Assembly: GCA_029721355.1 (NCBI GenBank)
Contig: CM056607.1
Span: 8,339,309 to 8,403,308 of the forward strand
From: Tegillarca granosa
Taxonomy: Eukaryota
Direction: 5' to 3'
Length of the DNA: 64,000 nucleotides
In this document: positions 5,952-46,204 of the stretch, piece after piece
Numbering within the stretch: the first letter of the stretch is position 1
How the letters are laid out: each line of letters starts with the position of its first letter
Made by a program: the position numbers and the translations under genes
The notes under the pieces: generated by a model
What the model saw: only the letters and a program-made list of their open reading frames with translations
The model's database searches: none
Told to the model about the DNA's origin: nothing

Positions 5952-7422
5952 TATACTAGCGGAAAAAAGTAACTGTTCATCAATAAAATTTATAATTTCG
6001 CTATTATTACTGAATGTATAAATCTTAAAATTTGCACCAATGGTAAGTGTATATACCTCTATCATATCATCAATTGCCCGTGATTTTTACGCTTCATGTG
6101 CACGGGTCGGTTTTCACGCAATTGTCGCCCAGCATTTCAGTGTGACAATATTTTAGGAATAATTTACTGTTGTTTGTTTGTTTGGACACCAGAAAACCAG
6201 AAAAGCAAGTTTATTCGGTTGAAAGCTTCCATAGTCTAATGCCTAGGCTAAATGAAAATGATCGCCTCTGCACAATTGGTATGCTTGAGGCTGGTATGAC
6301 CCAAAGCTTTGTCACTAGACATTTTGGTGTCCACAGAAACACTGTTTATGCTTTATGGAGACGATACCAACAGTTTGGCACCACTAGAGACCGCCCTCGT
6401 TCAGGACGTCCACACGTAACGACACGTCAGCAAGACAACCATATCCGGCTTGTGCACCCCCGGAATCGTTTCCAAACTGCCAGTACTACTGCCTGGAGCA
6501 TTCCTGGACTACGCCCAATCAGCCCCAGAACAGTAAGGAATCATTTACGGGAAAGACATATTGGCCCACGACATCCGGCAATCCGTCCAATTCTACAACG
6601 ACGTGATCGCACAGCTCGCCTTGCATGGTGCAGAACACATTTACGCTTCAATCTACGAGATTGGACACAAATTATGTTCACCGATGAGTCTAGATTTCAC
6701 TTGGACAGCAGTGACGGACGCTCCAGAGTGTATCAGCCCATTGGAGAACGTTTTCATGACGCGTGTGTGGTGGAACGACGTTGGTTCGACGGGGGCAGTG
6801 TAATGGTTTGGGGTGGCATCACAGCGAATGACAGAACTCCTCTGGTAGTCATCGTCAGGAATTTTACCAGTGTACGGTACCCTGATGAAATCCTACATAC
6901 CCATGTCATCCGATTCATTCAAGGACAGCAACGTAATGTCACTTTTCAGCATGATAATGCAAGACCACTCGTCACACGAGTTGCAATGGATTTTCTGGCA
7001 CAGCATAACGTCAATGTGTTACCATGGCCAGCCGTTTCACCAGACTTTTCTCCAATTGAACACGTATGGGATGAAATGGAACGTCGATTACATCATCTGC
7101 CTAATCAGCCTGTTACATTGCAAGGGTTGGCCCAAGCGTTAGACCAGATATGGAACAACATCCCTCAAGCATTCTTTAGGCATTTAATCAACTCTATGAG
7201 GCATCTCTGTCTCATGATACTGATCTTGTGAACTGACTTTTACTATCTGCTATGTTTCTAGTCCCCTGGGTATGAAATAACAATATCTAACCTTTTCAAT
7301 GACATGAATTTGTAAAGAAATATCTAATAAACAAATACGAAATTATTCATTGCTTTGCATTTTCAAATTATTTTATAATCACACATTTCAGTCATGCACA
7401 GTTACTTTTTTCCGCTAGTATA
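5952..7422 (+). mobile_element. Tc1-family (DD34E) DNA transposon, apparently intact, in PARP4 intron 1 about 85 bp upstream of exon 2
   Basis: Perfect 25-bp terminal inverted repeats TATACTAGCGGAAAAAAGTAACTGT (5952-5976) and ACAGTTACTTTTTTCCGCTAGTATA (7398-7422). TA dinucleotides at both ends are consistent with a TA target-site duplication. A single uninterrupted transposase ORF lies inside. Confidence 0.85.
6239..7231 (+). CDS. Tc1-like transposase (paired-like HTH + DDE catalytic domain, DD34E)
   Basis: MPRLNENDRLCTIGMLEAGMTQSFVTRHFGVHRNTVYALWRRYQQFGTTRDRPRSGRPH.. Catalytic motifs FTDESRF, QHDNARPLV and SPDFSPIEHVWDEM with 34 residues between the second D and E. The ORF track begins 23 codons earlier at 6170 via a non-ATG start. 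Confidence 0.85.
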   Translation: MPRLNENDRLCTIGMLEAGMTQSFVTRHFGVHRNTVYALWRRYQQFGTTRDRPRSGRPHVTTRQQDNHIRLVHPRNRFQTASTTAWSIPGLRPISPRTVRNHLRERHIGPRHPAIRPILQRRDRTARLAWCRTHLRFNLRDWTQIMFTDESRFHLDSSDGRSRVYQPIGERFHDACVVERRWFDGGSVMVWGGITANDRTPLVVIVRNFTSVRYPDEILHTHVIRFIQGQQRNVTFQHDNARPLVTRVAMDFLAQHNVNVLPWPAVSPDFSPIEHVWDEMERRLHHLPNQPVTLQGLAQALDQIWNNIPQAFFRHLINSMRHLCLMILIL

Positions 7423-9117: not shown

Positions 9118-9262
9118 GTGGCTGGGTAGCTCAGTTGATAGAGCGTCCCGCTAGTATTGGGAAGGACCCGGGTTTAAGTCCCGGTTTGGCCACTGCATTT
9201 TTTCCCTTTCCTGTTACACTCTCTGCAGAGATATTGTATGGTAAATTTTTCCTGTTATTTCT
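9118..9262 (+). mobile_element. SINE family B, tRNA-like head + body start; abuts the exon-4 acceptor
   Basis: GGCTGGGTAGCTCAGTTGATAGAGCGTCCCGCTAGTATTGGGAAGGACCCGGGTTTAAGTCCCGGTTTGGCCACTGCATTTTTTCCCTTTCCTGTTAC. tRNA-like A and B boxes, but no paired acceptor stem, so not a functional tRNA. Confidence 0.5.

Positions 9263-9610: not shown

Positions 9611-9670
<60 letters not shown>
9611..9670. repeat. T60 homopolymer (PARP4 intron 4)
   Basis: Direct reading. Confidence 0.95.
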
Positions 9671-12407: not shown

Positions 12408-12575
12408 GTTGAAGATGCAGAAGTAGCTTTAATGCAGCTGAAGAATTCTGTGTGTTCTGGAAATGATAAAAATAAACAACAACAATATACAGAGGAGTTT
12501 TATCAAGCCATTCCACATAAAATTAAATCCAGTTTAAATCTTAGACAAATCACAGCAAAACAAGATCTGTGTCAG
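12408..12575 (+). CDS. PARP4: PARP4-like exon 7; its 3' end is the founder of the 59-bp minisatellite
   Basis: tctgcag|GTT.. ..TGTCAG|gtatgt. VEDAEVALMQLKNSVCSGNDKNKQQQYTEEFYQAIPHKIKSSLNLRQITAKQDLCQ ~ human TAEQLQKMMTEFYRLIPHKGTMPKEVNLGLLAKKADLCQ. Confidence 0.85.
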
Positions 12576-15500
12576 GTATGTGATGAAGATATACCTTAGA
12601 CAAATTACAGCAAAACAAGCTCTGTGTCAGGTATGTGATGAAGATAAATAACCTTAGACAAATCACAGCAAAACAAGATATGTGTCAGGTATGTGATGAA
12701 GATAAATAACCTTAGACAAATCACAACAAAACAAGATCTGTGTCAGGTATGTGATAAAGATAAATAACCTTAGACAAATCACAGCAAAACAAGATCTGTG
12801 TCAGGTATGTGATGAAGATAAATAACCTTAGACAAATCACAGCAAAACAAGATCTGTGTCAGGTATGTGATGAAGATAAATAACCTTAGACAAATCACAA
12901 CAAAACAAGATATGTGTCAGGTATGTGATGAAGATAAATAACCTTAGACAAATCACAACAAAACAAGATCTGTGTCAGGTATGTGATTAAGATAAATAAC
13001 CTTAGACAAATCACAGCAAAACAAGATCTGTGTCAGGTATGTGATGAAGATAAATAACCTTAGACAAATCACAGCAAAACAAGATCTGTGTCAGGTATGT
13101 GATGAAGATAAATAACCTTAGACAAATCACAACAAAACAAGATCTGTGTCAGGTATGTGATGAAGATAAATAACCTTAGACAAATCACAACAAAACAAGA
13201 TCTGTGTCAGGTATGTGATGAAGATAAATAACCTTAGACAAATCACAACAAAACAAGATCTGTGTCAGGTATGTGATGAAGATAAATAACCTTAGACAAA
13301 TCACAGCAAAACAAGATCTGTGTCAGGTATGTGATGAAGATAAATAACCTTAGACAAATCACAGCAAGACAAGATCTGTGTCAGGTATGTGATGAAGATA
13401 ATACCTTAGACAAATTACAGCAAGACAAGATCTGTGTCAGGTATGTGATGAAGATAAATAACCTTAGACAAATCACAGCAAAACAAGATCTGTGTCAGGT
13501 ATGTGATGAAGATAAATAACCTTAGACAAATCACAGCAAGACAAGATCTGTGTCAGGTATGTGATGAAGATAAATAACCTTAGACAAATCAGAGCAAAAC
13601 AAGATCTGTATCAGGTATGTGATGAAGATAAATAACCTTAGACAAATCACAGCAAGACAAGATCTGTGTCAGGTATGTGATTAAGATAAATAACCTTAGA
13701 CAAATCACAGCAAAACAAGATCTGTGTCAGGTAGTGTGATTAAGATAAATAACCTTAGACAAATCACAGCAAGACAAGATCTGTGTCAGGTATGTGATTA
13801 AGATAAATAACCTTAGACAAATCACAGCAAAACAAGATCTGTGTCAGGTATGTGATTAAGATAAATAACCTTAGACAAATCACAGCAAAACAAGATCTGT
13901 GTCAGGTATGTGATGAAGATAAATAACCTTAGACAAATCACAGCAAAACAAGATCTGTGTCAGGTAGTGTGATTAAGATAAATAACCTTAGACAAATCAC
14001 AGCAAACAAGATCTGTGTCAGGTTGTGATGAAGATAAATAACCTTAGACAAATCACAGCAAAACAAGATCTGTGTCAGGTATGTGATTAAGATAAATAAC
14101 CTTAGACAAATCACAGCAAAACAAGATCTGTGTCAGGTATGTGATTAAGATAAATAACCTTAGACAAATCACAGCAAAACAAGATCTGTGTCAGGTATGT
14201 GATGAAGATAAATAACCTTAGACAAATCACAGCAAAACAAGATCTGTGTCAGGTATGTGATTAAGATAAATAACCTTAGACAAATCACAGCAAAACAAGA
14301 TCTGTGTCAGGTATGTGATGAAGATAAATAACCTTAGACAAATCACAGCAAAACAAGATCTGTGTCAGGTATGTGATTAAGATAAATAACCTTAGACAAA
14401 TCACAGCAAGACAAGATCTGTGTCAGGTATGTGATTAAGATAAATAACCTTAGACAAATCACAGCAAAACAAGATCTGTGTCAGGTTTGTGATGAAGATA
14501 AATAACCTTAGACAAATCACAGCAAAACAAGATCTGTGTCAGGTATGTGATTAAGATAAATAACCTTAGACAAATCACAGCAAGACAAGATCTGTGTCAG
14601 GTATGTGATTAAGATAAATAACCTTAGACAAATCACAGCAAAACAAGATCTGTGTCAGGTATGTGATTAAGATAAATAACCTTAGACAAATCACAGCAAA
14701 ACAAGATCTGTGTCAGGTATGTGATTAAGATAAATAACCTTAGACAAATCACAGCAAAACAAGATCTGTGTCAGGTATGTGATTAAGATAAATAACCTTA
14801 GACAAATCACAGCAAAACAAGATCTGTGTCAGGTATGTGATTAAGATAAATAACCTTAGACAAATCACAGCAAAACAAGATCTGTGTCAGGTATGTGATT
14901 AAGATAAATAACCTTAGACAAATCACAGCAAAACAAGATCTGTGTCAGGTATGTGATGAAGATAAATAACCTTAGACAAATCACAGCAAAACAAGATCTG
15001 TGTCAGGTATGTGATTAAGATAAATAACCTTAGACAAATCACAGCAAAACAAGATCTGTGTCAGGTATGTGATTAAGATAAATAACCTTAGACAAATCAC
15101 AGCAAAACAAGATCTGTGTCAGGTATGTGATTAAGATAAATAACCTTAGACAAATCACAGCAAAACAAGATCTGTGTCAGGTATGTGATGAAGATAAATA
15201 ACCTTAGACAAATCACAACAAAACAAGATCTGTGTCAGGTATGTGATGAAGATAAATAACCGTAGACAAATCACAGCAAAACAAGATCTGTGTCAGGTAT
15301 GTGATTAAGATAAATAACCTTAGACAAATCACAGCAAAACAAGATCTGTGTCAGGTATGTGATGAAGATAATAACCTTAGACAAATCACAGCAAAACAAG
15401 ATCTGTGTCAGGTATGTGATGAAGATAAATAACCTTAGACAAATCACAGCAAAACAAGATCTGTGTCAGGTATGTGATTAAGATAAATAACCTTAGACAA

Positions 15501-16530
15501 ATCACAGCAAACAAGATCTGTGTCAGGTATGTGATTAAGATAAATAACCTTAGACAAATCACAGCAAAACAAGATCTGTGTCAGGTATGTGATGAAGATA
15601 AATAACCTTAGACAAATCACAGCAAAACAAGATCCGTGTCAGGTATGTGATTAAGATAAATAACCTTAGACAAATCACAGCAAAACAAGATCTGTGTCAG
15701 GTATGTGATTAAGATAAATAACCTTAGACAAATTACAGCAAGACAAGATCTGTGTCAGGTATGTGATTAAGATAAATAACCTTAGACAAATTACAGCAAG
15801 ACAAGATCCGTGTCAGGTGTGTGATTAAGATAAATAACCTTAGACAAATCAGAGCAAAACAAGATCTGTGTCAGGTATGTGATTAAGATAAATAACCTTA
15901 GACAAATCACAGCAAACAAGATCTGTGTCAGGTATGTGATTAAGATAAATAACCTTAGACAAATCAGAGCAAAACAAGATCTGTGTCAGGTGTGTGATTA
16001 AGATAAATAACCTTAGACAAATCACAGCAAAACAAGATCTGTGTCAGGTATGTGATTAAGATAAATAACCTTAGACAAATCACAGCAAAACAAGATCTGT
16101 GTCAGGTATGTGATTAAGATAAATAACCTTAGACAAATTACAGCAAGACAAGATCCGTGTCAGGTGTGTGATGAAGATAAATAACCTTAGACAAATCAGA
16201 GCAAAACAAGATCCGTGTCAGGTATGTGATGAAGATAAATAACCTTAGACAAATCACAGCAAAACAAGATCCGTGTCAGGTATGTGATTAAGATAAATAA
16301 CCTTAGACAAATCACAGCAAACAAGATCTGTGTCAGGTATGTGATGAAGATAAATAACCGTAGACAAATCACAGCAAAACAAGATCTGTGTCAGGTATGT
16401 GATGAAGATAAATAACCGTAGACAAATCACAGCAAAACAAGATCTGTGTCAGGTATGTGATTAAGATAAATAACCTTAGACAAATCACAACAAAACAAGA
16501 TCTGTGTCAGATATGTGATTAAGATAAATC
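12537..16530 (+). repeat. 59-bp minisatellite x ~67 (TTAGACAAATCACAGCAAAACAAGATCTGTGTCAGGTATGTGATGAAGATAAATAACC); the first unit is the last 39 nt of PARP4 exon 7 plus the first 20 nt of intron 7
   Basis: Direct reading. Near-identical units with point variants (gaag/taag, caaa/caag, ctt/cgt). Every unit retains TGTCAG|GTATGT. Confidence 0.95.
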
Positions 16531-17099
16531 TACAAGTCAGTGCTTAGTTAGTAGCATAACCATTTCTTTATATTGCTTTACAGTTTGAGTAGAAAAATCT
16601 CTGTTTGAAATGATTAAAAATAAAAATATTTATTGACCCCTTGAAAAAAAAATAGAAAAACAAAAGTCTGGATCAGATTGGATTACATTAACCTGTGTTT
16701 TACCAAAAGTCAAGATTCTTTAAGTTTTACTGAGGCAGTCAATTCTTGGATGGTAGAGTGTCCACTGACCTTCATCAAGTGAACTGACAAAGTTAAACGA
16801 TAGAGACAACTGAAAAGATATTTTGACATCAACTTTATCCTCAATGAACAAATGCTTGAATGTTACCAACATACTGTGCAAAAAAATTGATGTTAAAAAA
16901 TTTGGCAAATTAAAATCAGTGGGTGTATGAATACGAAAGTGAATTTAGAAGTGAAATTCTGGAAACACAATTTGTGCTTGAATGAGTAAGTGATTTCTGT
17001 ATCTTATTTGTCAATTGAAATCTTTTACATTACTTCTTCAGCACCATTGATCAAATAACACAACTTTAAGTCAGCATATATGGTCCTATAAAGAACCAA

Positions 17100-17292
17100 A
17101 TATTCAAATTTAACATGTACAGAAAAGGAGTGGAGTGGAGTAATGGTGTTTTATGCTTCAGTCAAGATTCTGACAAACTTCCTCACACTAGGATCTGTAC
17201 CAAGTGGGATTCAAACTTAGGTGATGAAAGGCACTATGATCTGTAAGCACACGCTTTAGACTATTCAGCTGTGGAGGCCCCCTGGATTGGAT
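17100..17292 (-). mobile_element. tRNA-derived SINE family A copy A2 (PARP4 intron 7, just upstream of exon 8)
   Basis: ggagtggagtaatggtgtttta..cagtcaagattctgacaaacttcctcacactaggatctg..gggattcaaacttaggtgatgaaaggcactatgatctgtaagcacacgctt.. Confidence 0.6.
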
Positions 17293-17371
17293 TAATATCT
17301 GAGTCTAATATTAATCTGAGAAAAACATTTACATGTACAACAAGTGAAAATTTTTATATTTTCTGTTCTAG

Positions 17372-17532
17372 TTGATACATGATATACATGGTGCAAGTGA
17401 AGCTACAGATTGGTCTGAAGATGCCACAACATATGCAAAGTTCAGGGCATTAAGATGTCATGTGACCTATCTTGACCAACCAGATCAAGGATATCATGAT
17501 GTCAAAAACATGGTTGAAAGCACTTCTCCAGG
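17372..17532 (+). CDS. PARP4: PARP4-like exon 8 (catalytic domain start)
   Basis: tgttctag|TTG.. ..CCAGG|gtatgt. LIHDIHGASEATDWSEDATTYAKFRALRCHVTYLDQPDQGYHDVKNMVESTSP ~ human LIRDMVNVCETNLSKPNPPSLAKYRALRCKIEHV. Confidence 0.85.
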
Positions 17533-18301
17533 GTATGTGTATGTTTTACTTAGTATTGCACTTAAGAAATTATTTAAAAGTTTTGAGTTTCATTAAGGAA
17601 TAATGTGTAAATGGTATGTTGCAGAAAATTTCTTAAAATGTCATAGTTATTTCCTATTGACTGATTAATAATATATTAAAGATTATTTGAAACATGAAAA
17701 TTGATAATTGCAATCAAAATGAGGTTTTTACAAAACAAAGAAAGAAAAATATGATGTACTACATGACATTATAAATAACCCATCACTACATATTTTTCTT
17801 TCATTGTCAGGTGATTTTTATGATAAAAGTTTAAGTTAAAGGTAAAACATTTGATTGACTATCTGTTGTCTTGTTTATAATTACATTTACGGTATATCTG
17901 TACAGATATACATGTACTACATTCATCTGATTTTTTAAGACACTAACAAATAACTTCATTTAATAATTTCACCAAACAGAAAATTATATTTTCATCCTTA
18001 CTTCAATTGTGAGACAAGTAAGTGAATTTACAGGTCATTCCTTCAATTATCAAGGGTCTCAGTGACTAATCTTACTATGGAATGCAATACCTATGATCAT
18101 GACCACCTTAGTTAAAATCTAGATCTTAATGCTAAAAAGATTGTCAGTGTTCTTGGTGAAACATCGGTGGTTTCCTCAGGGCACTGTAGTTTGCCACCAT
18201 CTTTGAACTGTGCATCTTGATGTAGTAAAAAAGAATAATGACTTGTGTCTGTGGCACCATTAATCGACTTCTGTAGTTATCAATCATATTATTTATTGTA
18301 G

Positions 18302-18433
18302 TGTAAAGATTTTGAATATATACAAAGTAGGAAGAACGGCAGAAGATATACAGTTTAACACAAATGGAACTAGAAATGTACATCTGCTCATGCACTCCTC
18401 TGCTGCTTATAACTTTCTAGGTATTCTCTCAAG
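18302..18433 (+). CDS. PARP4: PARP4-like exon 9 (catalytic His)
   Basis: ttattgtag|TGT.. ..TCAAG|gtatgt. VKILNIYKVGRTAEDIQFNTNGTRNVHLLMHSSAAYNFLGILS ~ human VDVLQIFRVGRVNETTEFLSKLGNVRPLLHGSPVQNIVGILCRG. Confidence 0.85.
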
Positions 18434-18999
18434 GTATGTATGGTATGTTAGTCACAAAATTAATTCTGCCACCCTCTCATTTAGAAATAATAAACCATTT
18501 GGCTAGTTCCGTTATTCAATTTGTATTTTACAATTACAACTGTCAACTTATGTACTTCCAACAAAAAAGAGTTTCACTTGATAAGTGTGTTTTTTTTTAC
18601 GTATTGAATGGCCTTTTATAAACTGTCAACTGAACAACCAGCTGTTCCCAAAGTTTGTCCAGTCTGCAACTTTTGTAAAAATAATGTGTCCAGTTTAACT
18701 TCTTAGGAAATGGATAATTTACAATTCTTTATTGAATGAATTCAAACATAAGTATACAGAGTTAGAACCCAAAAATTGCTTTTATCATTCAAAAACAAAA
18801 GAATTGCAATATGTCATTCATATATGACCATGTAATTACCCCAATGGCTGCATCACTTCATGAAATATTCGTTGACATGTGAAAGCCAGTTTGTGTTATT
18901 CGATGATAAAGCACAGGTAGATACTTATTTTTTTTTTTTATTGAAAACCTCAAATTCCAAATTCACTCAGTTCTAAATTACACATTTATTTTTTTTCAG

Positions 19000-19098
19000 A
19001 GGGTTATTACTACCAAATATAGCTGTAGACCAGTATGGAGTAAGTCAGACTGATGCTGGTATGTTAGGTGCTGGGATATATTTCTCTAATTCACTTAA
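19000..19098 (+). CDS. PARP4: PARP4-like exon 10 (catalytic Tyr, GIYFS)
   Basis: ttttttcag|AGG.. ..CTTAA|gtaagt. RGLLLPNIAVDQYGVSQTDAGMLGAGIYFSNSL ~ human RGLLLPKVVEDRGVQRTDVGNLGSGIYFSDSL. Confidence 0.85.
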
Positions 19099-19309
19099 GT
19101 AAGTATGATTTTTATCTCATCTGCAAAAAGGGCAAAAAAAGTTATTTCCTCTCATATCACACTTTTAAAAATTGATTTTGTCTGTGACAAGCCTTTGGGT
19201 TTACTGTATTTTCTGAACCAACAAAATAGCCATGATTTCATCCACACATGTGAAAGAGTCTTTTAGCCTTACACCTGGTATTTGTGATAGCATAAGTGTC
19301 CAATGCTAA

Positions 19310-19795
19310 AGAACAACCTCAATAAAATGATCCATCCATACAGTTAAGTTTTCTGATCCATCCATACAGGTAAGCTTTTTGATCCATACATACATATAAG
19401 CTTCTTGATGCATCCATTCAGGTAAGCTTTCTGATGCACCCATACAGGTAAGTTTTCTGATGCACCCATACAGGTAAGCTTTCTGATGCATCCATACAGA
19501 TAAGCTTTCTGATGCATCCTTACAGGTAAGTTTTCTGATGCACCCATTCAGGTAAGCTTTCTGATGCATCCATACAGTTAAGCTTTCTGATGCACCCATA
19601 CAGGTAAACTTTCTGATGCACCCATACAGGTAAGCTTTCTGGTGCATCTAAACAGGTAAGTTTTCTGATGCATCCATACAGGTAAACTTTCTGATGCACC
19701 CATACAGGTTAGCTTTCTGATGCATCTATACAGGTAAGTTTTCTGATGCATCCATACAGATAAGCTTTCTGATGCATCCATACAGGTAATTATCT
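19310..19795 (+). repeat. 26-bp minisatellite x ~18 (CATACAGGTAAGYTTTCTGATGCAYC), each unit containing the consensus 5' splice site CAGGTAAG; PARP4 intron 10
   Basis: Direct reading; period 26 measured between successive catacaggta. Confidence 0.9.
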
Positions 19796-20505
19796 AAACA
19801 TGCTAGACTGTTAAGACATTTCATTATTAATTGGCAATATCTCTTTAAATGTTTCCTGTTAACGAGCCCAGTGCAATTAGGAACTTCCAGAAGTAGAAAA
19901 TTCATGTGTCTGAAATGAATTCCACCTTTTCCAATCAAGTGACCCAGATAAACTCTTCAAATGGGAAGGGAAAAAAATGTAAAAAATGGCAACTTCCATT
20001 ATGGAATTTTAGCATTTTGATGAACATTTAAATAGTTTTTAAGAAGATTTTATACTCCAATTGGTGAAAATGAAAACCTGCTTATTTTATTGCTTTTAAA
20101 TAGGCAAGTATTTTATGTATAGTTAACAGTTGTATTCGCTGAGTCCTCCATATTTTAAGCATGTGACATGCATATCTTCTGAAATTATGCCCGATTTTTA
20201 AAAGAGTCAGAAATGCTTCTGGAAAAGGAAGTTGCCCAGTCAAAAATTCAGAAGGCATTTTACGTGAGTAACTCGTGTTTTCTACTTCTGGAAGTTCCCA
20301 ATCGCATCAGGGTCTAGTAATAAGGCATCACTTGTTACAGTGATGAATACCATTGACCATCAGTTTTAGACCAATATTAAAGATAATACACTGCTGTATT
20401 GTAAATTCATTGGCAAAAAAGTTTAATGATTGTTTGTAAAAATATTGCATAAAATATGGTGTCAAATTATTTCAGAATTTTAATGATTTTCTATTTTCAT
20501 TTCAG

Positions 20506-20683
20506 TATAAGTAATCTTTACTCAAAACCAAGTGTTCATACTGGTTCAAGATTTGTACTTCTCTGTGAGGTTGCTCTTGGAAAATCTTGTAAATTTTCAA
20601 AGCCTGATCCAAAATTGAAAGCACCACCTGTAGGTTATGACAGTGTTTGTAGAGTTTTAAGTGAAGAAAATCACAGTATTGAG
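20506..20683 (+). CDS. PARP4: PARP4-like exon 11
   Basis: catttcag|TAT.. ..ATTGAG|gtaaga. NISNLYSKPSVHTGSRFVLLCEVALGKSCKFSKPDPKLKAPPVGYDSVCRVLSEENHSIE ~ human YSHPGETDGTRLLLICDVALGKCMDLHEKDFSLTEAPPGYDSVHGV. Confidence 0.85.
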
Positions 20684-21312
20684 GTAAGAATGTTTTTATT
20701 GCATAACATGTCCCTTCTATTTGTGTCACTGTAATTTTGTCAATGAATTATTTAGAATTTTCATAGAAATTTCAATGAACTATAATTCAGCATCTTTTAC
20801 TCGCTTAAGTCTAGTCATAACTGAAAATCAGGTATCCGCAATTACCATAGAAGAATACACACAGTAAAAATATGTCTCTTTGGGGGTTTTACTTGTTAAA
20901 AAACAAGGCAAATGGTAAATTCTTTTGCACATTTAATGTAATGCAACACTAAAACATCACTTTCAGTGTAAAAACCACCATTTTCAACATATAGAATCCC
21001 CATAGCAGCAATGTTTTACTTTCTACAGAAATAATTTATGACATTTGCAGATGCCCATAGCGATTTCCAGTTACGACCAATTAATTGTAGCAAGACCATA
21101 TAATAAAAAACATAATACACAGATGAAGTATCGCTGTCATTTCCATGGTAACTGTGTAGTTTTAAATGAAGAAAATAGCAATATTGAGGCACGAATTTTT
21201 CGTTATGCATATCCTGTCCCTAAATCCATATAGCAAAATCCTAAACATATTTGTGAACAAATGTTTTGACTAATGACTCTTTAATTATCATCAGCTGTAT
21301 ATTTTATTTTAG

Positions 21313-21466
21313 GAATTGGAGTATGTCATTTATAATCCCAGTCAACATAGAATGAAATATTTAGTAGAATATGCACTCCCAACAGATGAAATCTCACAGA
21401 TTGAAAACTTCACTGTTACCATGGAAACTGATGAAGAAGTTTTACAGAAAAATTTATCAAAAATTG
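21313..21466 (+). CDS. PARP4: PARP4-like exon 12 (catalytic Glu region)
   Basis: attttag|GAA.. ..AAATTG|gtatgt. ELEYVIYNPSQHRMKYLVEYALPTDEISQIENFTVTMETDEEVLQKNLSKI ~ human DEFVVYKTNQVKMKYIIKFSMPGDQ. Confidence 0.8.
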
Positions 21467-22150
21467 GTATGTTATTGCAAATTCAGCAACTTTAATCCCA
21501 ATAGCTTAATTATATGACATTCAATAGTTAGTTTATACAGTTTTAAGTATACTAATGTATAAGGAAATACAGTGCAGCCTGTTCAACTGAACACATGTAG
21601 ACCAAAGATTTGGTTTGGTTTAGGAAGGAATATGGTTTACACAGGTTATTTTAACAAATGATTTTAAAAATCAATGAAAATTGATCAGGTAATACCTTTT
21701 TTTGGTTAAGTTGACCAGTTGCACTATAGGCTGATAAATAATGGTTTAAATAAACACTTTATAAGAACATGATTTCAGGTTGTTTTATTGTTATAGATAC
21801 ATGCTTATTGTTAAAATTCATACAAAATTAAAGTTTGTCAACATATGATAAATTCTTGGTTTGGATACTTTTCAAGTACCAGTACATTGTATTTCAATAT
21901 TTTCTAGTTTGATGAGGGTTTTTCTTAATCTAAACCCAGGTGAAACAATTAACTAACAGAATAATTTTTTTTGTGTCATCTGAATAAAATGAGGCAAATT
22001 TATCAAAAATTGCTAGGTAAAAATTGAATAACCAGGTAAAAATTGCTAACCAGGTAACTTATGTCAAAGATTATGGTAATCTTGAGCTTGTGCATTGATA
22101 AATTGTATGTTAAAACTTAAAATTTTACAGGAATATTATTTTTGCTTTAG

Positions 22151-22281
22151 ATATAAATGATGTTAAAGACATTCCTGATCCATTAGCTAAAGTGGAGGCA
22201 GGTTTAATTGGAGGAAAGAAAAATTCTGTACCTCTGAAAAGTGTTCATATCAGAGCTAAATTACTGGATCTTGTAGGACAG
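22151..22281 (+). CDS. PARP4: PARP4-like exon 13
   Basis: tttgctttag|AT.. ..GGACAG|gtaaat. DINDVKDIPDPLAKVEAGLIGGKKNSVPLKSVHIRAKLLDLVGQ ~ human NLVPLEDVHIKGRIIDTVAQ. Confidence 0.75.
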
Positions 22282-22360
22282 GTAAATATATGGAATTTTA
22301 ATTCAGTATCTTACTGGATCTTGTAGGACAGGTAAATATATGGAAGTCTAATTCAGTATC
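22261..22360 (+). repeat. 50-bp tandem duplication of the exon-13 3' end + donor (TTACTGGATCTTGTAGGACAG|GTAAATATATGGAA.T.TAATTCAGTATC x2)
   Basis: Direct reading; the second copy carries an intact GACAG|GTAAAT. Confidence 0.9.
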
Positions 22361-22700
22361 TCCTACAGACATGTGAGATCATTATTCAACAAATAGAACT
22401 AAAGGAAAATATATGGTGTTTTGTGCCCCATTCGAGATCATTTTTCTCACTTATATCAAGGTGGTGTAGGACAACAGAGTACTTGGTTAAAAACCACTGA
22501 CACTCCATAAGTAAACTGACAAACTTTAGAGGTAATCGGGCAAAACTCTTTGAAAAAATATGATAATATGTATTTGAAATATCTGTTATCAAATATAAAT
22601 GTTATAAAAAGATAGAATTTACAAAGTTTAATTTTTTCACTTTTATCATCATCATCATCATCATCAAGTGTCACTCTATCAAATCAAAATTTTATTTTAG

Positions 22701-22827
22701 GTAGTAGTTTTACAGTCTTACAGAAATGACAATAGTGTAAACATAGAAGCTAAGTATGTATTCCCCCTGGATGATACGGCAGCTGTTTGTGGATTTGAAG
22801 CTTTTATAAATGGAAAACACATTATTG
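22701..22827 (+). CDS. PARP4: PARP4-like exon 14 (VIT domain)
   Basis: tttattttag|GTA.. ..ATTATTG|gtcagt. VVVLQSYRNDNSVNIEAKYVFPLDDTAAVCGFEAFINGKHII ~ human VIVFQTYTNKSHVPIEAKYIFPLDDKAAVCGFEAFINGKHIVG. Confidence 0.9.
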
Positions 22828-23248
22828 GTCAGTATTTAAGAATTGTGCTATAAAGTTGTGTTTTTATTTCTTCTACAATCTTTGTTCTCAAAAGCTCACT
22901 TATGATTTCAAAAACTTTCTTTTTCTAATTGTTCTAGATAAGAGTTTGACACCCTGACAAAAGTTGATGTCTTCCTCCTGGTAAAAATATAGATACATGT
23001 ATAGTGTCTACTTGGTGAAACTTGTGTATTTAGTTCTGAATGATATCATGTGATAACTGATAAACAAATGTCACCTTTGGTCTTTAAGCTTTACATTTGG
23101 TGAACCTCCCTTTTTAGATTGAATAATCTGTATAGACATAGAATATGTAAAACACAAATCTTGTTCATTGTTGTATTTTGATATTAGACTGAAAGAGGAA
23201 TTTAACTTCAATAACCATTTAAGTTAACAGTATACATATTTTTTACAG

Positions 23249-23340
23249 GGGAGGTTAAAGAGAAAGCCAAAGCTCATAAGGAGTACAAAGAGGCTGTTAG
23301 TAAAGGTCATGGTGCTTATCTGATGGATGAAGAAGAACCA
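23249..23340 (+). CDS. PARP4: PARP4-like exon 15 (VIT)
   Basis: ttttacag|GG.. ..GAACCA|gtaagt. GEVKEKAKAHKEYKEAVSKGHGAYLMDEEEP ~ human GEIKEKEEAQQEYLEAVTQGHGAYLMSQDAP. Confidence 0.85.
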
Positions 23341-23845
23341 GTAAGTAACATGTGTGTACACATACAATATAGTGCACTTACTCATACATGCATATGTATA
23401 CATATAAAATAATGAAAAATGAGACAAAAACAGAAATACTGTCAATCAGATTTTGTACATTTTGACAGAGTAAATGGTGAACATTTAAAAAATCTCAAAA
23501 GAGAGGGAAAGAGAGAAAAATGTAGCCAAAAGGTCCCATGAAAAATTAAAAATTCTTCTTTTGCTTGGCCTACTGGACCCCCAGTAGGGCTCAGTGCCTT
23601 TAGTGGCCCAACGACCATTTACCACTTTGTGCTTGTGCTTTTGAGGCTTGCAATATTTCATTAAAAAATCTCACCCCCCCCCTCATAAAAATAATGGTTT
23701 CGCCCCATTGTAGTGCTTAAAATGCATGCTGGTTTACATTGATAAAATACAGATCAAGATCAAGTTTGAATTTTAGTTTTTTATATGAACCAATTTTAAA
23801 AATTTGTCATTATCAGTGATGCCTCTTATTTTGATTGAATTTTAG

Positions 23846-24010
23846 GATGTTTTTACAGTGAGTGTTGGAAATCTTCCACCAAAGGCAGATGTACTTATCA
23901 AGATTACCTATATAACTGAACTACAGGTAGAGGGCGAAAATATCAGTTTTACAGTGCCATCTAGTGTTGCACCTTGGGTTAAAGATATGGCCTTAGCACA
24001 ACAAACTCAG
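23846..24010 (+). CDS. PARP4: PARP4-like exon 16 (VIT)
   Basis: aattttag|GAT.. ..ACTCAG|gtatgt. DVFTVSVGNLPPKADVLIKITYITELQVEGENISFTVPSSVAPWVKDMALAQQTQ ~ human DVFTVSVGNLPPKAKVLIKITYITELSILG..ATVAPW. Confidence 0.9.
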
Positions 24011-24580
24011 GTATGTTGTGTTCATTTGTTTTTGTTGTTGTAGTGTTTATTTTTATAATTAAATTTAAGGGTCAAGTCCATGCAGGGCCTTAAGCTCATC
24101 TGGTCTGTACTGCTTATCTTTTTATATTTATTGCATGAATTCATTGAGAGAAAAATGCTGTCTTTTTACTGGGGTGACACTCAGTCAAAAGGACTCAAAA
24201 TAACCAACATCAATTCTGCTTATACATTCATTTATCAGCAGGGACAAGTGAAGTTTATGTCTTTATGGACATTTTTCAATTTGGCATAGAGAGTAACATG
24301 ATAATGTAACAGATGTCATGGCTGATTTTCGTATTTGTAACACAAAACAGTTCATTTTGTTGATAAGAGCTGATAATTCAAAATGGAGGTTACTAGAGAT
24401 AGCAATAAGATTAAACAAAAGTCTTTTTATTTTCTATTTGTATGAGATATGTGTTGTACACTTTGTTTCCCAACTTTTGATTACTGCTAATGGCATCATT
24501 GCCAAAAAATATCTTTTTCATACTAAATAAATTTCTTATCGCTACATGCATATATTTTATAATTTTTGTCCTTTTTTAAG

Positions 24581-24703
24581 GATAATTTACAAACTTTGAA
24601 AATACATAACAGTAGCAGATGTGAAGTGTCGTTACATGTTTCTGTGGAAATGCCGTTTGATATTAGACGTTTATACTCACCTACACATGTCATCAAATAT
24701 AAG
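24581..24703 (+). CDS. PARP4: PARP4-like exon 17
   Basis: ctttttttaag|GAT.. ..TATAAG|gtaact. DNLQTLKIHNSSRCEVSLHVSVEMPFDIRRLYSPTHVIKYK ~ human KQSFSLTMSIEMPYVIEFIFSDTHELKQK. Confidence 0.75.
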
Positions 24704-25743
24704 GTAACTATGAGATGATGATAAACATTAATATATCTGAAATCATAAAATTCCAAGGTGTCCCAAGTCGAATTTACGTTAGGTCATTACATGTATTTAT
24801 CCATTTTGTACACACTGTTGTCAATGAATTCTCGTGTACATGTACATGTACCAATATTTCTTAAAGTCTATAGGTCCATGAATCTATTGTTTATCTCGGC
24901 CTCATTGACACAAAGTCCTAAAAGTAATTACTAGAACTTCTGTCAAAGTTTAGAGTTGTACCCACCATTACAATTAAAATTTTGACTGAAGAAGCCTCAA
25001 CATCATGGAATCATTTAAACATTTCTTTAATAATCATTTGTCACATATAGAATTAAGTGATTAGGGATATTAAAGGAAGTTGTATCTTCACCAAAAGTTT
25101 AAATCTCAGCATTCCTACCATTCCTTCCTTCGACTGGGTGTTCTGGGACAATCAATCTGGCTTAACCAACTATCTATTAATCCTGCAGTGGTTACTTCTT
25201 AGCAAAAGAAACGGTATTGTGTAGTTGTTTATTTTTGTGGAGTGCAAATTTTGGCATATTTTGGCAAAAGTATTAAAATCGCAAAATTCAAATTGTAAAA
25301 ATATTTTTATACCAGTCGATCAGTAGTAAGTCATTTTAGATCAGGAGAATAAATACGCTAAAATTGTCAATCAATCTTTTCTTGTCAAAATTGCCAAAAA
25401 TTTAGCCCTGCTATTTTTTAGCCTTATTTTTTGTATGCTAGTTTTCTAATTAGACTTAAATTTACCCATATAAAAATGACAGTTTTCATCAATTAGAATA
25501 AACAACTTTAAATAAACTTATATATAATGCATGCACTATAAAGCCAAATACTGTGTTTGAAATTTTTAAGGGTTTGAAGTACTTAACTGTTCTGCCTAAA
25601 GAAACTTTCATGATATACTGTTTTGCTACAAAAAACATTAAAAATAAACCTTTTTTGGCATATACATATGGTTTATTTTTTTTGTGGTAAATATGCTGAT
25701 TTTGTTTTACGATAAAGTTGTAATAATTATCTATCTATTCCAG

Positions 25744-25878
25744 AAAACTGCAACCAAAGCTGTACTACAATTACCAAAGAATGCACAACTAGATGAAGGT
25801 TTTCAGCTACTGATTATGTTGTCAGAAATACATGTACCCAGAATGTGGGTAGAAAGACATCCAGACAAAGATAGTCAG
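25744..25878 (+). CDS. PARP4: PARP4-like exon 18
   Basis: ctattccag|AAA.. ..AGTCAG|gtatca. KTATKAVLQLPKNAQLDEGFQLLIMLSEIHVPRMWVERHPDKDSQ ~ human ..SAAYLPRMWVEKHPEKESE. Confidence 0.8.
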
Positions 25879-26100
25879 GTATCACATCTGTTTGTGTCGG
25901 GGAGGGGACAAAAAGTTTTGGGTGTTAGGGGAATAAAATGGTAGAAAGACACCCAGACAAAGCTAGTCAGGTATGGCATCTGTTTATGTGTTGGGGGATG
26001 AAAAGTTATGGGTGTTAGAGGAATTAAATGGCAAAAGGACATCCAGACAAAGATTGTCACATATTACATCTGTTTGTTTGTTTGGGGGGGGAGGGTTGAA
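25850..26100 (+). repeat. ~85-bp unit x 3 comprising the exon-18 3' end + donor (GTAGAAAGACAYCCAGACAAAGMTAGTCAGGTATSRCATCTGTTT..GGGG..GTTAGGGGAATAAAATGG)
   Basis: Copy 1 is the real exon end (25850-25935). Copy 2 (25940-26025) retains GTCAG|GTATGG. Copy 3 (26028-26105) has GTCACATATT, so its donor is lost. Confidence 0.8.
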
Positions 26101-26329
26101 AGGTTGTGGGTGTTAGGGGAATTAAATGGTACAAAGAGGAGGGGGGTAGGACATGGCAGAAACAGGGATGGTGGTGTAGCTTCATTGGAATGAATATGGG
26201 TAGAGGCCACTTAGGTAGATAGCTATGACATTTGTTTGTGTGTGCGTGTGTGTGTGTGTGTGGGGGGGGGGGGTTTACATAAGAATTACAATTCATACAA
26301 ATTCAGACAAATAGTAAGAATTAATCCCC

Positions 26330-26910
26330 CATGGACATTTATGATTTTCTAGTATTTCATAGTTGTATTTTTTCCAGTATTTCATAGTTGTATTTTCCCT
26401 GTATTTCATAGTTGTATTTTCCCTGTATTTCATAGTTGTATTTTTCCCAGTATTTCATAGTTGTATTTTCCCTGTATTTCATAGTTGTATTTTCCCTGTA
26501 TTTCATAGTTGTATTTTTTTCCAGTTTTCCAGTAATTCATAGTTGTATTTTTCCCAGTATTTCATAGTTGTATTTTTTCCAGTATTTCATAGTTGTATTT
26601 TCCCTGTATTTCATAGTTGTATTTTCCCTGTATTTCATATTTGTTATTTCCCAGTATTTCATAGTTGTATTTTCCCTGTATTTCATAGTTGTATTTTCCC
26701 TGTATTTCATAGTTGTATTTTTTTCCAGTTTTCCAGTATTTCATAGTTGTATTTTTCCCAGTATTTCATAGTTGTATTTTCCCTGTATTTCATAGTTGTA
26801 TTTTTCCCTGTATTTTATAGTTGTATTTTTTTCCAGTATTTCATAGTTGTATTTTCCCTGTATTTCATAGTTGTATTTTTTACAGTATTTCGTAGTTGTA
26901 TTTTTAGGAC
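26330..26910 (+). repeat. 24-27-bp minisatellite x ~22 (GTATTTCATAGTTGTATTTTCCCT) in PARP4 intron 18, ending 25 bp before the exon-19 acceptor
   Basis: Direct reading; ORFs 26543-26959 (both strands) are artefacts of it. Confidence 0.9.
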
Positions 26911-27647: not shown

Positions 27648-27788
27648 GTTTTGTTGCTGGCACTAGAACAATTGTCAGAGAAAGCTGTATTTAACATTGT
27701 GATGTTTGGAACATCTTTTAAAGAATTGTTTCCAGCTCCACAGAAAAAATCAAAATTAACAGAAGAAAAAGCCGACAAATTTATACAG
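27648..27788 (+). CDS. PARP4: PARP4-like exon 20 (VWA)
   Basis: tatatag|GTT.. ..ATACAG|gtatgt. VLLLALEQLSEKAVFNIVMFGTSFKELFPAPQKKSKLTEEKADKFIQ ~ human IALHALSLVGEKQKVNIIQFGTGYKELFSYPK. Confidence 0.8.
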
Positions 27789-28254
27789 GTATGTGATGTT
27801 TTGTGTATTTGATCTTGATCAGTTTAAAATTTTTGCCCAGCTTTTAGAGTTGTAAAGTGGTTATCCAGGTTTAAGTAATGTAAATAACCACCCCAACACC
27901 CTACTCCCTGGGTTATACCCAGGATATTTGCTGCTCTTTTACATGGAAACTTGGTGAACTTGACCAGCAAAAAGCTACTTGCCTTGATGGAAGTCATATT
28001 ATATAGCCAAGCTGGTGTTGAACTCATAACTCTTGAATCATGTGTCCTTGGCCTTAATCAATTATCCTCATTATAGTAGTAAAAATATTCTTTAGATTTT
28101 TAAAATATTTATTTATTTATTTATTTATTTTATTTAATTTATTTATTTATTTATTTCATTTCATTGTTTTGTCTTGTTTCGTTTTGTTTTATTTTATTTT
28201 TATTTTTTTTTTTTTTCATGTTTAATATTGTTTGTTATCTAAATGTATTTATAG

Positions 28255-29045: not shown

Positions 29046-29336
29046 TGTTAAAGGAAATCTTAATATAATGTGATCAGGTTACTGCTTACAATGTCTGTAA
29101 CAAAATGTTATCCTGGGACATTTTTAATTTTCCTTTTCTTAAGAGTATTTTTGATTTATTTGGTAGGCATAACAGAATTTTATGCCCAAGGGTAGATTAT
29201 TTAATTTATATTGAGATGGTCAGTTTTAGAATGGTACAGGAAACTGGAATAAACACAACTATCTTTCAGCAAGATCTCTAACTTACCCAATGGGATTCAA
29301 CCTTTGACAGAGGTACCATCATTTGTAACATGATTT

Positions 29337-30510
29337 TAGACCAAAAGGTCATATGAGCTTATGGCATGGCGTGGCATGTGTATGTGCATGCATGTGTGCA
29401 TTGTTAACACCTATTTTCAACTTCTCCTCCAAAACTGCTGGACAGATTTCAATGATACTTAGTCAGAAGCATATATGGGCCGGTGCAATTCAGATTTGTT
29501 CAAAACTAGGTCAAGGTGACCTAGGGGCCAAAAATCTTAAAAAAAAACTTCTTCTCCCAAACCGATGATGGGAGAAAAAATTTGATGTGATATTTGGCTT
29601 CTCTAGGGTCTTAAGCCTATAGTTTGTTTATTTCTTGAAATTAGGTCGAAAATCGGGTTACGGTACACGTTTTTGCATTTAATTTTAAAAATGGCTTCAA
29701 ATTGTTATAACTTGACTATTTGAACAGATAATGACATGAGGTTTTCAGTTTTGACTTTTTCTTGAAATGACCTTTAAATTAGGGCCAAGGTCACAAATCA
29801 AGGTCATGACCTAATTTATGATTTATGCAGTTTTAGGCAATTTTATTGCAAATATTAAGAGATATATGATTTCAAAACATTGTTAAAATGTTCAGCATGA
29901 CAAAATTTAAAAAGGTACAAAGTTTCATAACTATATGATAATCCATGTAGGAGTTGTTGCCCCTGAAATGTTACTTTTGGCTTATAAATACTAAAATTGT
30001 GCATTAGCTTGAAAACTTTAATTTTTTTTGTATAGGCATGTATATTAGAATATTGTAGGTATTGTAACAACGATCATTTTGATATATAGTTCAAGGTCTT
30101 ATGGTCAAAGGTCAAGATAACAGCTGCAAAAAAAGACTTAAATTGCTAATTATCTTGAATACTGTTAACTTTTTGTACAAGCATGTATATTAGAATATTG
30201 TAAGTATTGACATGAAGATCTTATATAGTTCAAGATCATATGTGTTCAAAGGTCAGGGACATAGCTGCATAAGTATACTGAAATTTGTTAATGATTTGGA
30301 AATTATTCATTGCACTACAGTTACTTCATGCATATTATATAAGATACGTATAAATGAAATGTGACTGGATATATTTCTGATTAAGTTTTGTGGGAGTTCT
30401 TAACTTGAGAAAACTTGTAAAGTTTCTGTACTTAATATATTGTCTATTGCATTTTGCAAACAATTTTTTACATATCCTCAGGTGAGCGTTAAGGCTCATG
30501 AGCCTCTTGT
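29337..30510 (+). mobile_element. Helentron-like non-autonomous element copy T1 (5'-variant), carrying internal ~140-150-bp satellite monomers; PARP4 intron 21
   Basis: Shares the body (..ggtcatatgagcttatggcatggcg.., GT-rich tract, ..ttctcctccaaaactg..cagatttcaatgatactt..) and the 3' end CCTCAGGTGAGCGTTAAGGCTCATGAGCCTCTTGT with T2-T5. Confidence 0.5.
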
Positions 30511-34518: not shown

Positions 34519-35588
34519 GTCAGTACAACTTCCTATGAAAACATAAGAATTTATTTTTGTAAGTGTTCAAAAGTGATTCAATAAATATGCATACACTATA
34601 AACCATTGTAAATTGGCTTTTGGTTTGAAAAACCAGTGGCTAGGTGATTAAGACTGCAAATTCATACCATAATTAAAAAAGACTTGAGGTTGTATGATGT
34701 TACTTTTAGCAAGACTTTTAATCTCAAATTGCTCCAATTCATTTAACTATTAATGGGTGTCAACTTTATTTCTTGTAATTAATATTAAGATAGAATGACC
34801 TCTCATCCAAGATGGAGTCTTGTAATCTTATTTTCTTCCATCACTGAAACCATGAGTAAGCACTGAGGCCCGTTCAAGATACACTATGTATGCTTGCGAG
34901 TGCAAGTGAGTGACTGTTATCAATATTTGAAGGTTTTTCGCCTTAGATTCAAGATGGCGTCTCTCGGACAAAGTTTGTAAGAAATAGCTTAAATAAATTC
35001 TGAAACCAGCATGCATTTCAATTTATATTCAGTCCAAGGGTATGGTTTCTTTCTAGAAGGGATTTGAATGATAGGATTAGTTAAAACTTATGTACAGATG
35101 TCCGATTTAATTTATATATTGACATTTTCTCTCCCGTTGAGTGTCGGTGTCTAAATCTAGATGATTATGATTAGTCAGTACTCACCTCCATTCAATAGAC
35201 ATAAAAAATGTATTCGCAAATGCATTGGAAAGCAACCAGTAACTTGAACACACCTTTGATTGGCGAACAAGCTTATAGGCACTGGACAGACTTAATTTTA
35301 ACTGTAAATACTGTAAAACCTTTGTATTATGCTCACAATCTCTTCATATCACTAAAACTAAGGCTAAGTACTTGACTGATGAACAAGCCTATAAGCCTTA
35401 GACAGACATTATCTTTTTGTTTAACTGTGAAATTATGTAAAACCTATGTTTCGTACTCAGTCTCTCCACATACTTAACCAGAAAATACACCTGTATATTG
35501 AGCCTATAGCTGAGATGCTGACCAAAGGAAGCTTAAACTATGGGAAATTTTGAAATATAAAGAGTTGGCAAAATTGAGCTTTGTTTTT

Positions 35589-40275: not shown

Positions 40276-40452
40276 AACCAATAACACTGTGTGTAAAAAC
40301 ACTGTCTGGTAAAACTCTAGGTGTTGGTGCAATGAGGAACCAGACAATCCGAGATCTAAAGGACCTGATATTTGACAGGGAAGGGATACCCCCAGAAACC
40401 CAGAGACTTGTCATGGGGGGAAAACAAAGAACAGATGATGAATTAATCCAAG
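40276..40452 (+). CDS. PARP4: PARP4-like exon 30: N-terminal half of a ubiquitin-like domain
   Basis: tattacag|AA.. ..TCCAAG|gtacta. EPITLCVKTLSGKTLGVGAMRNQTIRDLKDLIFDREGIPPETQRLVMGGKQRTDDELIQ ~ ubiquitin [32 protein letters not shown]. Confidence 0.75.
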
Positions 40453-40486
40453 GTACTATATCATTTAAAAAAAGACTACTCAATTG

Positions 40487-40517
40487 TAATTTTTTTTTTT
40501 TTTTTTTTTTTTTTTTT
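40487..40517. repeat. T30 homopolymer, 35 bp after the exon-30 donor
   Basis: Direct reading. Confidence 0.95.
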
Positions 40518-40599
40518 GGTTATAAATCTTTGTCTTTGTAATCAGTAAATAAAATATCAAGAATTTCAAATTTTTGTACAGAAAAAATTATAAACTGTT

Positions 40600-43975: not shown

Positions 43976-44003
43976 CTGTCTAACATCCACCCTTATATGA
44001 TAA

Positions 44004-44393: not shown

Positions 44394-44689
44394 TATTTAT
44401 AGTTTATATCACCTGTAACTATGGTAGCTCACCTGGAGACATCTCTGACAACAGTGAAAAAAGTACCATATACATGTATATGTAGGTGAGCTACACATTG
44501 TTATGACAGGTCTTATTTAGATGACTGTTATATATATAAGATAGCATTAAATGGAAAAGTTTTAAAATACTGTCGAAATCCAATATTTATATATGAATCT
44601 TATACTTGGCTGTATCTTTTATTTACCACCCTTTTTTGAAGTAACAAAAATATTTTATTGCCTCAGTTGAAGTAAAGTGAAGTAAAGCC

Positions 44690-46133: not shown

Positions 46134-46138
<5 letters not shown>

Positions 46139-46204
<66 letters not shown>
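46139..46204. repeat. (CT)33 microsatellite, 30 bp upstream of HSP70-fragment exon B
   Basis: Direct reading. Confidence 0.95.

Follow-up and report, generated by a model that had tools for sequence, protein, structure and literature searches.

The window analysed here is a 64,000-nucleotide stretch of the Tegillarca granosa genome (GenBank assembly GCA_029721355.1, contig CM056607.1, positions 8,339,309 to 8,403,308 of the forward strand), and all positions given below are those of the window. It is AT-rich (GC about 0.32), and tandem repeats make up 24.75% of it. The gene on its plus strand between 4849 and 39043 is, as judged from its sequence, a homologue of PARP4. Here we show that the junction between the exon end and the 5' splice site (donor) has been duplicated at five exons of this gene (exons 7, 11, 12, 13 and 18), while one further donor-containing array, in intron 10, is treated as an unrelated minisatellite. 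The features concerned are as follows.

4849-39043, plus strand: PARP4-like gene with BRCT, PARP regulatory, PARP catalytic, VIT and VWA domains (homologue search, tblastn exon map, Pfam).
12408-12575, plus strand: exon 7, PARP regulatory domain (...FYQAIPH...DLCQ), authentic donor CAG/GTATGT between 12575 and 12576.
12540-16529, plus strand: minisatellite of 69 units of 58 bp (Tandem Repeats Finder, TRF: period 58, 68.9 copies, 97% matches; unit-by-unit alignment).
19328-19792, plus strand: array of 18 units of 26 bp in intron 10, unit TGATGCATCCATACAGGTAAGCTTTC (TRF: 19328-19789, 17.8 copies).
20648-20715, plus strand: source segment at exon 11, the last 36 nt of the exon (20506-20683) with GAG/GTAAGA and 32 nt of intron 11.
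21153-21221, plus strand: displaced copy of the exon 11 junction, 505-506 nt downstream within intron 11 (BLAST and repeat search).
21450-21472, plus strand: source segment at the 3' end of exon 12 (21313-21466), AAATTTATCAAAAATTG with the donor GTATGT.
21996-22057, plus strand: displaced copy of the exon 12 end with a mini-array, 546 nt downstream (17 nt exact, 21/23 overall).
22151-22281, plus strand: exon 13, donor CAG/GTAAAT.
22261-22360, plus strand: two copies of 50 bp, copy 1 being the last 21 nt of exon 13 with the donor and 29 nt of intron (TRF, alignment).
25744-25878, plus strand: exon 18, donor CAG/GTATCA.
25852-26132, plus strand: three copies of about 92 bp (91-98 nt each), copy 1 joining 27 nt from the end of exon 18 to about 65 nt of intron (TRF: 90 bp x 2.6).

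The concatenated open exon-like frames of the gene matched proteins with PARP catalytic, VIT and VWA domains, some of which are named PARP4, including Crassostrea gigas and Solemya velum entries. A colinear series of exons was mapped by tblastn with ten homologous proteins, and Pfam assigned BRCT to the first coding exon and PARP_reg to the exon at 12408-12575. Splice sites were set by reading the junctions, and exons 7-28 were modelled and joined in silico. The spliced exons gave a single open frame of 994 aa whose sole stop is the terminal one, colinear with the homologous proteins P0001 (52% identity over 632 residues) and P0006 and gap-free at the affected junctions. The homology spans the junctions DLCQ/LIHD and LVGQ/VVVL in the P0001 and P0006 alignments, where DLCQ/LIHD pairs with DLCQMLQD of P0006, and DSQ/ACM in the alignment with P0001. 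The protein search gave no close relative of the window species; its best identities were 59-71%, in partial matches, all of 655 aa or less. An initial annotation, made from the letters alone, had named the gene PARP4 and numbered its exons. The PARP4-like identity was borne out by the homologue search, tblastn, Pfam and the P0001 alignment, and the numbering agrees with our model of exons 7-28.

The largest of the duplications begins in exon 7. By direct reading, unit 1 of the array comprises the last 36 nt of exon 7 with CAG/GTATGT and about 20 nt of intron. The GT is kept in 68 of the 69 units, most of which carry the identical 9-mer CAGGTATGT. Unit length is 58 nt in 57 units, 57 nt in seven, 56 nt in three and 59 nt in two. 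A 7-nt microhomology, TAAATCT, stands just 5' of the first unit and again just 3' of the array. Variants are grouped in blocks, and the pattern of units 1-2 recurs at 13349-13462, which fits multi-unit unequal exchange or slippage. The nine donor columns of the unit hold six variants and the other 49 columns hold 90, 37 of those in one column; conservation of the donor columns was not clearly different from that of the rest of the unit. The initial annotation had placed this array correctly and had rightly described it as donor amplification, but its 59 bp x 67 did not stand, as TRF and the alignment both give 58 bp x 69. The exon 7 donor (12573-12585) also has 13 bases in common with the exon 20 donor (27786-27798), CAGGTATGTGATG; among 26 donors this match is probably a coincidence.

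Two smaller tandem duplications lie at exons 13 and 18. The exon 13 copies are identical at 48 of 50 positions, the second being unchanged around the donor, and only 1 nt of microhomology is present there. The three exon 18 copies are 76-83% identical to one another. Copy 2 keeps CAGGTATG, and copy 3 has lost its donor, with CACATATT in place of CAGGTAT. The sequence GGTA[G/C]AAAGA is found both before the first copy (GGTAGAAAGA) and after the last (GGTACAAAGA). Replication slippage templated by short microhomologies, which had been put forward as a candidate mechanism, thus has visible seeds at two of the three tandem arrays, those of exons 7 and 18.

At exons 11 and 12 the copy stands apart from its source. 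BLAST aligned the exon 11 copy at 82% over 65 nt (E = 1e-12), and 56 of 70 positions were identical in the alignment (about 80-82%); its donor has changed from GGTAAG to GGCACG, so that the GT is now GC. The exon 12 case had been missed in the initial annotation. Here the last 17 nt of the exon (21450-21466) are exactly repeated at 21996-22012, with a local alignment score of 36 against a shuffle maximum of 23. The copy directly joins a 19-bp x 2.3 array (22015-22057, AGGTAAAAATTG..., TRF) that reiterates AAAAATTG and AGGTAA, and since the two abut, this array is taken to be junction-derived as well. Unrelated sequence of 437 nt (exon 11) and 523 nt (exon 12) separates source and copy. These spacers were considered as transposons and rejected, as they have no other copies in the window, no mutual similarity and no terminal repeats. 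Overall, every item listed in the initial annotation was found at its place, with exon 12 as an addition, so that recurrent duplication of donor junctions in this gene is upheld. The exonic breakpoints, which had been put in the last 20-40 nt of the exon, were measured 17-36 nt upstream of the donor, and the identities (97%, 96%, about 80% and 76-83%) mark the duplications as independent events of differing ages.

Splicing in silico was sensitive to the choice of donor. Use of the second exon 7 donor gave ...DLCQVCDEDIP and a stop after 7 codons, and reading through to the next donor gave a stop after 14 codons at exon 13 and after 22 codons at exon 18. Only first-donor splicing at every duplicated junction yields an intact frame colinear with the homologues. 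Homology thereby confirms, at the level of the predicted protein, that the first donor alone could give a functional product.

The 26-bp array of intron 10 behaves differently. It begins 229 nt past the true exon 10 donor (between 19098 and 19099), and its unit contains CAGGTAAG(C/T). GGTA is kept in 13 of the 18 units and the +1 G is lost in the other five, being among the most variable columns of the array; some units are a perfect CAGGTAAGT, stronger than the real exon 10 donor TAA/GTAAGT. Derivation of the unit from a donor junction was tried and rejected, the best score across the donor junctions of the gene being 18, with no match, in keeping with the initial annotation, which had judged this array not to be exon-derived. 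No further copy of the unit occurs in the window. The motif CAGGTA is found in the repeat unit of six of the 37 tandem-repeat loci of the window against 0.73 expected (P = 6e-5). Four of these six are junction-derived and simply inherited CAGGTA from genuine donors; besides these there are only the 26-bp array and, with the motif in antisense, a 94-bp x 36 array. The excess vanishes when the junction-derived arrays are left out, and the probability of at least one sense CAGGTA among the non-junction PARP4 arrays is 0.2. Since the unit matches no junction, is confined to this array within the window and has a donor motif within chance, we regard the intron 10 array as an unrelated minisatellite whose good donor consensus is fortuitous.

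We compared an 80-nt window at each well-defined junction with its own intron by local alignment, using reversed and shuffled queries as controls. A downstream copy was present at five of the 26 PARP4 donors, with scores of 138 (exon 7), 79 (exon 18), 70 (exon 13), 65 (exon 11) and 36 (exon 12), where the shuffle maxima were 20-30. None of the 20 acceptor junctions had a copy in the upstream intron (maximum score 25), and three of 152 non-repeat intronic 80-mers, which trace to two events, had a downstream copy. By Fisher's test, donors exceeded acceptors with a one-sided P of 0.048 and intronic tiles with a P of 0.002. These and all P values below are nominal and post hoc, as the locus had been flagged for its odd look and some such genes are expected by chance among tens of thousands. 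As a side observation, the first copies of repeat families in the PARP4 introns (4984-38335) tend to lie at the donor or within the opening quarter of the intron (+87, +131, +229, +280 and +534 nt), and tandem-repeat origin may be skewed towards the 5' part of introns.

Donor-spanning arrays have been described before. The initial annotation had considered their recurrence across the locus possibly the most novel feature of the window, but the kind of element is already known; only its clustering in one gene is unusual. Intron 7 of human F7 contains a 37-bp variable number tandem repeat (VNTR) of 5-9 copies whose first monomer spans the exon-intron boundary (PMC1557585, Borensztajn et al. 2006). 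Its identical pseudo-donors are functional yet silent, and the most upstream site was shown experimentally to be chosen by position (PMC1557585). Boundary-spanning arrays also occur in human IFI6 (6-16) intron 2, with 25 pseudo-sites, CBS intron 13 (31 bp x 15-20), LMNB2 (100 bp x 10-15) and PDGFA intron 4 (81 bp x 16-18) (PMC1557585), and in ABCA7 intron 18, whose 25-bp VNTR takes in the donor of exon 18, runs from 12 to about 427 units and influences splicing (PMC5954066). The exon 7, 13 and 18 arrays share the sequence layout of F7, namely an intronic head-to-tail array whose first monomer carries the exon end and the donor, with the donor reiterated; the first monomer of the intron 10 array does not contain the authentic donor. 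As in F7, an authentic donor is followed by identical pseudo-donors, and just as F7 uses the first site, the PARP4 frame is intact only with the first. F7 differs in having 4 nt of exon per unit and 5-9 copies, against 21-36 nt and up to 69 copies in PARP4, where several junctions are hit; first-donor use is experimental in F7 and here predicted from the reading frame. In ABCA7, a large intronic array likewise includes a donor, with a cryptic donor one unit downstream that is out of frame. Its unit, however, starts exactly at the GT and holds no exon sequence, and its length has been shown to affect splicing of neighbouring exons and disease risk, whereas the PARP4 arrays are known from sequence alone. 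In IFI6, CBS, LMNB2 and PDGFA the first monomer reiterates the donor, and the units (12-100 bp) and copy numbers overlap those of the PARP4 arrays. Each of these human genes has one array, in contrast to five junctions in PARP4, and in IFI6 and CBS the first one or two pseudo-sites are used. Our literature searches turned up neither a gene with several junction duplications nor a donor-specific duplication mechanism.

Other known systems fit less well. One model of intron gain starts from an exonic segment with AGGT that is duplicated in tandem (PMC3265369, PMC4974935), and it resembles the present case in this duplication of a segment with AG/GT and in the later splicing out of the duplicate. 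There the breakpoints on both sides fall within the exon and a new intron arises, whereas the PARP4 duplications straddle pre-existing donors; the model was rejected, as the copies sit in introns that reach the normal next exon, with no insertion or deletion at the junctions relative to homologous proteins. Recursive splice sites were also rejected, because the introns are 0.4-4.8 kb long and the sequence upstream of AG/GT is not pyrimidine-rich (AAAACAAGATCTGTGTCAG in the 58-bp unit, TGATGCATCCATACAG in the 26-bp unit). A transposon-derived satellite, like the 145-bp blocks found elsewhere in the window, was rejected in turn, since the junction units copy adjacent unique exon sequence and the 26-bp unit is confined, within the window, to its own array.

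The initial annotation had proposed a look at the PARP4 locus of related bivalves. The only intron-bearing bivalve orthologue compared, that of Solemya velum (L003), is too distant for dating the events. Its tandem repeats are few and all lie away from the junctions, and copies were found at none of about ten donors or acceptors; separate exon blocks flank the region that matches the exon 18/19 junction. The events are accordingly lineage-specific. The best ENA matches, P0010 and P0007, were rejected as junction comparators, being intronless PARP4-like open reading frames (ORFs; 1596 nt for 531 aa), one of them close to a reverse-transcriptase ORF. Intronless PARP4-like frames, with PARP_reg/PARP followed by VIT/VWA, lie in the large ENA metagenome-derived eukaryotic contigs L001 (6538-11596) and L002 (8435-11785). 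Those of L001 adjoin reverse-transcriptase ORFs, and the frames of both contigs may be retrocopies or come from an intron-poor lineage.

Several other elements lie in and around the gene. Intron 1 of PARP4 contains a Tc1/mariner-like transposase frame with DDE_3 and a Tc3-type helix-turn-helix (361 codons, 6146-7228); its C-terminus appears degenerate, and no exact copy of this ORF is on record in the public collection. A tRNA-like sequence in intron 3 (9120-9192; Rfam tRNA, 52.5 bits), the sole Rfam match in the window, is probably a tRNA-derived short interspersed element (SINE) and not a tRNA gene; a locally duplicated segment (about 8945 and about 9185) and a 60-nt poly-T (9611-9670) lie beside it. 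A 24-bp x 22 array (AGTATTTCATAGTTGTATTTTTCCC, 26351-26905) has acceptor-like motifs (a pyrimidine tract with CAG, and TTCATAG) and stops 28 nt short of the acceptor of exon 19 (26934). With a score of 24 against a control of 18, it is not detectably derived from that acceptor.

Downstream of PARP4, a plus-strand gene (40278-46598) has a ubiquitin-family exon (Pfam E = 2.5e-10) and an exon for the substrate-binding domain of HSP70 (45291-45809, Pfam E = 2.3e-42). The HSP70 ATPase domain was not seen between the two, and the combination is unusual if this is one gene. The 94-bp x 36 array (40609-43963) lies in the intron after the ubiquitin-like exon, whose donor is at 40452; its unit has CAGGTATGG and two more CAGGT on the minus strand, antisense to the gene, as well as an internal 17-nt sub-repeat (ACCTGTCTAAAAGCCAT / ACCTGTTTTAGCCAT). 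Blocks of a 145-bp satellite are present at 30003-30400, 36292-36526, 37131-37822, 47234-48333, 49298-50328 and 63546-64000. A conserved segment of about 200 nt stands near several of them (29329-29565, 35578-35835, 46871-47101 and 48871-49143), a pattern suggestive of a composite transposable element that carries a tandem array inside it, with at least five copies in 64 kb. On the minus strand, a Piwi-domain exon (63459-63314, Pfam E = 6e-9) is accompanied by a further Piwi-like exon at about 62354-62230. The intron after the former has a 45-bp x 8.7 array (feature span 62886-63459) that begins 40 nt past the donor and excludes it.

How did five donor junctions of one gene come to be copied? 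Neutral tandem duplication in a repeat-rich genome, filtered to donor-spanning events and kept silent by use of the first donor, is in our judgement the probable explanation. A short segment across the exon 3' end and the 5' splice site would have been duplicated in tandem, probably as replication slipped or switched template from one short direct repeat to another. The variant patterns suggest that slippage or unequal exchange would then have expanded some duplicates, to 69 units at exon 7, and others would have remained at two or three copies or ended about 0.5 kb from their source. Such copies could persist if the exon is paired with the first donor past its acceptor, so that later copies are removed as intron; position-based choice of the first donor, by analogy with F7, would apply here. 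Duplications within exons or across acceptors would damage the mRNA and be purged. The asymmetry between donors and acceptors can then be ascribed to purifying selection and first-donor choice, and a donor-specific mutational mechanism is not needed for it. The clustering most likely reflects, in combination, the repeat-rich genome (25% of the window), easier detection where the source copy is constrained, and the choice of an unusual-looking locus. Neutral decay of the copies is also what we observe: the GT has become GC in the exon 11 copy, exon 18 copy 3 reads CACAT, and the +1 G is gone from five of the 18 units of the 26-bp array. The junction copies look like sequences decaying neutrally rather than maintained decoy donors.

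Several points weigh against this explanation. When each of 20 PARP4-intron repeat families was placed uniformly within its own intron at its pre-expansion length, five donor-spanning families were observed against 1.1 expected (Poisson-binomial P = 0.003). Tolerance covers only the donor/acceptor asymmetry, and the excess of about 4.5-fold over uniform placement is not fully explained. Old junction duplicates stay recognisable longer because their source copy is constrained, unlike pairs in which both copies drift, but such detectability adds at most about two-fold. All five events are confined to exons 7-18 of one gene, and no copy was found at the other donors tested, namely 21 PARP4 donors, the ubiquitin-like exon (40452) and the Piwi exon (63314, minus strand). 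The origin of the displaced exon 11 and 12 copies is also unexplained by neutral tandem duplication. Finally, use of the first donor in the mRNA is deduced from reading frame and homology. With the three tandem arrays alone, a gene-wide placement model gave a P of 0.005-0.03. The clustering is thus nominally significant and leaves some room for two other explanations, a donor-linked mutational bias, which we hold to be unlikely, and a selected role, which we rate lower still.

In the first of these, donor junctions or early introns would be mutational hot spots at which this genome is especially prone to short tandem duplication; a candidate cause is that DNA breaks coupled to transcription or splicing, or a polymerase stalled close to the 5' splice site, are repaired by fill-in or template switching. 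The excess of donor-spanning families and the contrast between donors and intronic tiles both speak for it, and the clearly different ages of the events would mean that the tendency persists. Several further intronic repeat families begin in the first quarter of the intron, and the Piwi-gene array begins shortly past its donor. However, the evidence comes from a single gene chosen as unusual, with post hoc P values, and our literature search turned up no such mechanism. The exonic fraction of the units (about 0.27-0.74) looks uniform, as it would for random duplications that happen to include a donor. Neither the donors of the orthologous Solemya velum locus nor the other donors tested in the window had copies. 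We therefore regard a hot spot as improbable and favour the ordinary, neutral reading over a donor-targeted bias. It is equally doubtful, in our view, that minisatellites of exon end plus donor form a genome-wide class produced by a transcription- or splicing-coupled process, with PARP4 as its most visible example.

Selection for the extra donors is less likely again. They might recruit U1 small nuclear ribonucleoprotein (snRNP) or act as decoys that strengthen definition of the exon upstream, suppress premature polyadenylation in the AT-rich introns, or tune PARP4 through leaky use and nonsense-mediated decay. Exon 7 is indeed followed by 68 intact strong donors, and some intron 10 units are better donors than that of exon 10 itself. 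In human genes, ABCA7 repeat length alters splicing of the flanking exons (PMC5954066), and F7 pseudo-sites restore exon inclusion once the authentic site is mutated (PMC1557585). Selection for decoy donors had been offered in the initial annotation as an alternative to slippage, and the data lend it no support. The donor columns of the 58-bp array are not conspicuously better kept, the +1 G of the older 26-bp array is variable, and both junction duplications of about 80% identity, the older ones, include a copy without GT. Donor motifs are at chance in the arrays left after removal of the junction-derived ones, and any use of a pseudo-donor truncates the protein in silico.

For exons 11 and 12, a separate possibility is that the displaced copies are long target-site duplications, or templated fill-ins, around an insertion of about 440-520 bp shortly past the donor, in place of products of tandem duplication. 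The two copies do bracket 437 and 523 nt of unrelated sequence, and the length of the exon 12 copy (17-23 nt) falls within the size range of retroelement target-site duplications. At exon 11, 68 nt would be unusually long for one, and the spacers have no other copy in the window, no mutual similarity, and no terminal inverted repeats or poly(A) tail. We consider such insertions unlikely, on a level with selection. That the long arrays are misassembled or over-expanded is very improbable. The one point in its favour is the general difficulty of assembling long near-identical arrays; the sequence and unit-length variants of the 58-bp array are structured and non-random, and the two-copy, three-copy and displaced duplications are diverged and set in unique sequence.

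The PARP4 locus is a natural experiment in splice-site choice, in which exon 7 is followed by 68 further near-identical donors over 4 kb, each with 36 nt of exon context. Position alone separates the real exon 7 donor from its copies, which extends the F7 model, with its 5-9 sites, tenfold. Arrays of this kind probably vary in length between individuals, and PARP4 expression could be modulated by them, as happens with the repeats of human ABCA7 and F7. If a donor-targeted bias were true, splicing signals and genome instability would prove to be linked in a way not described before, which would bear on the evolution of alternative 5' splice sites and of intron length.

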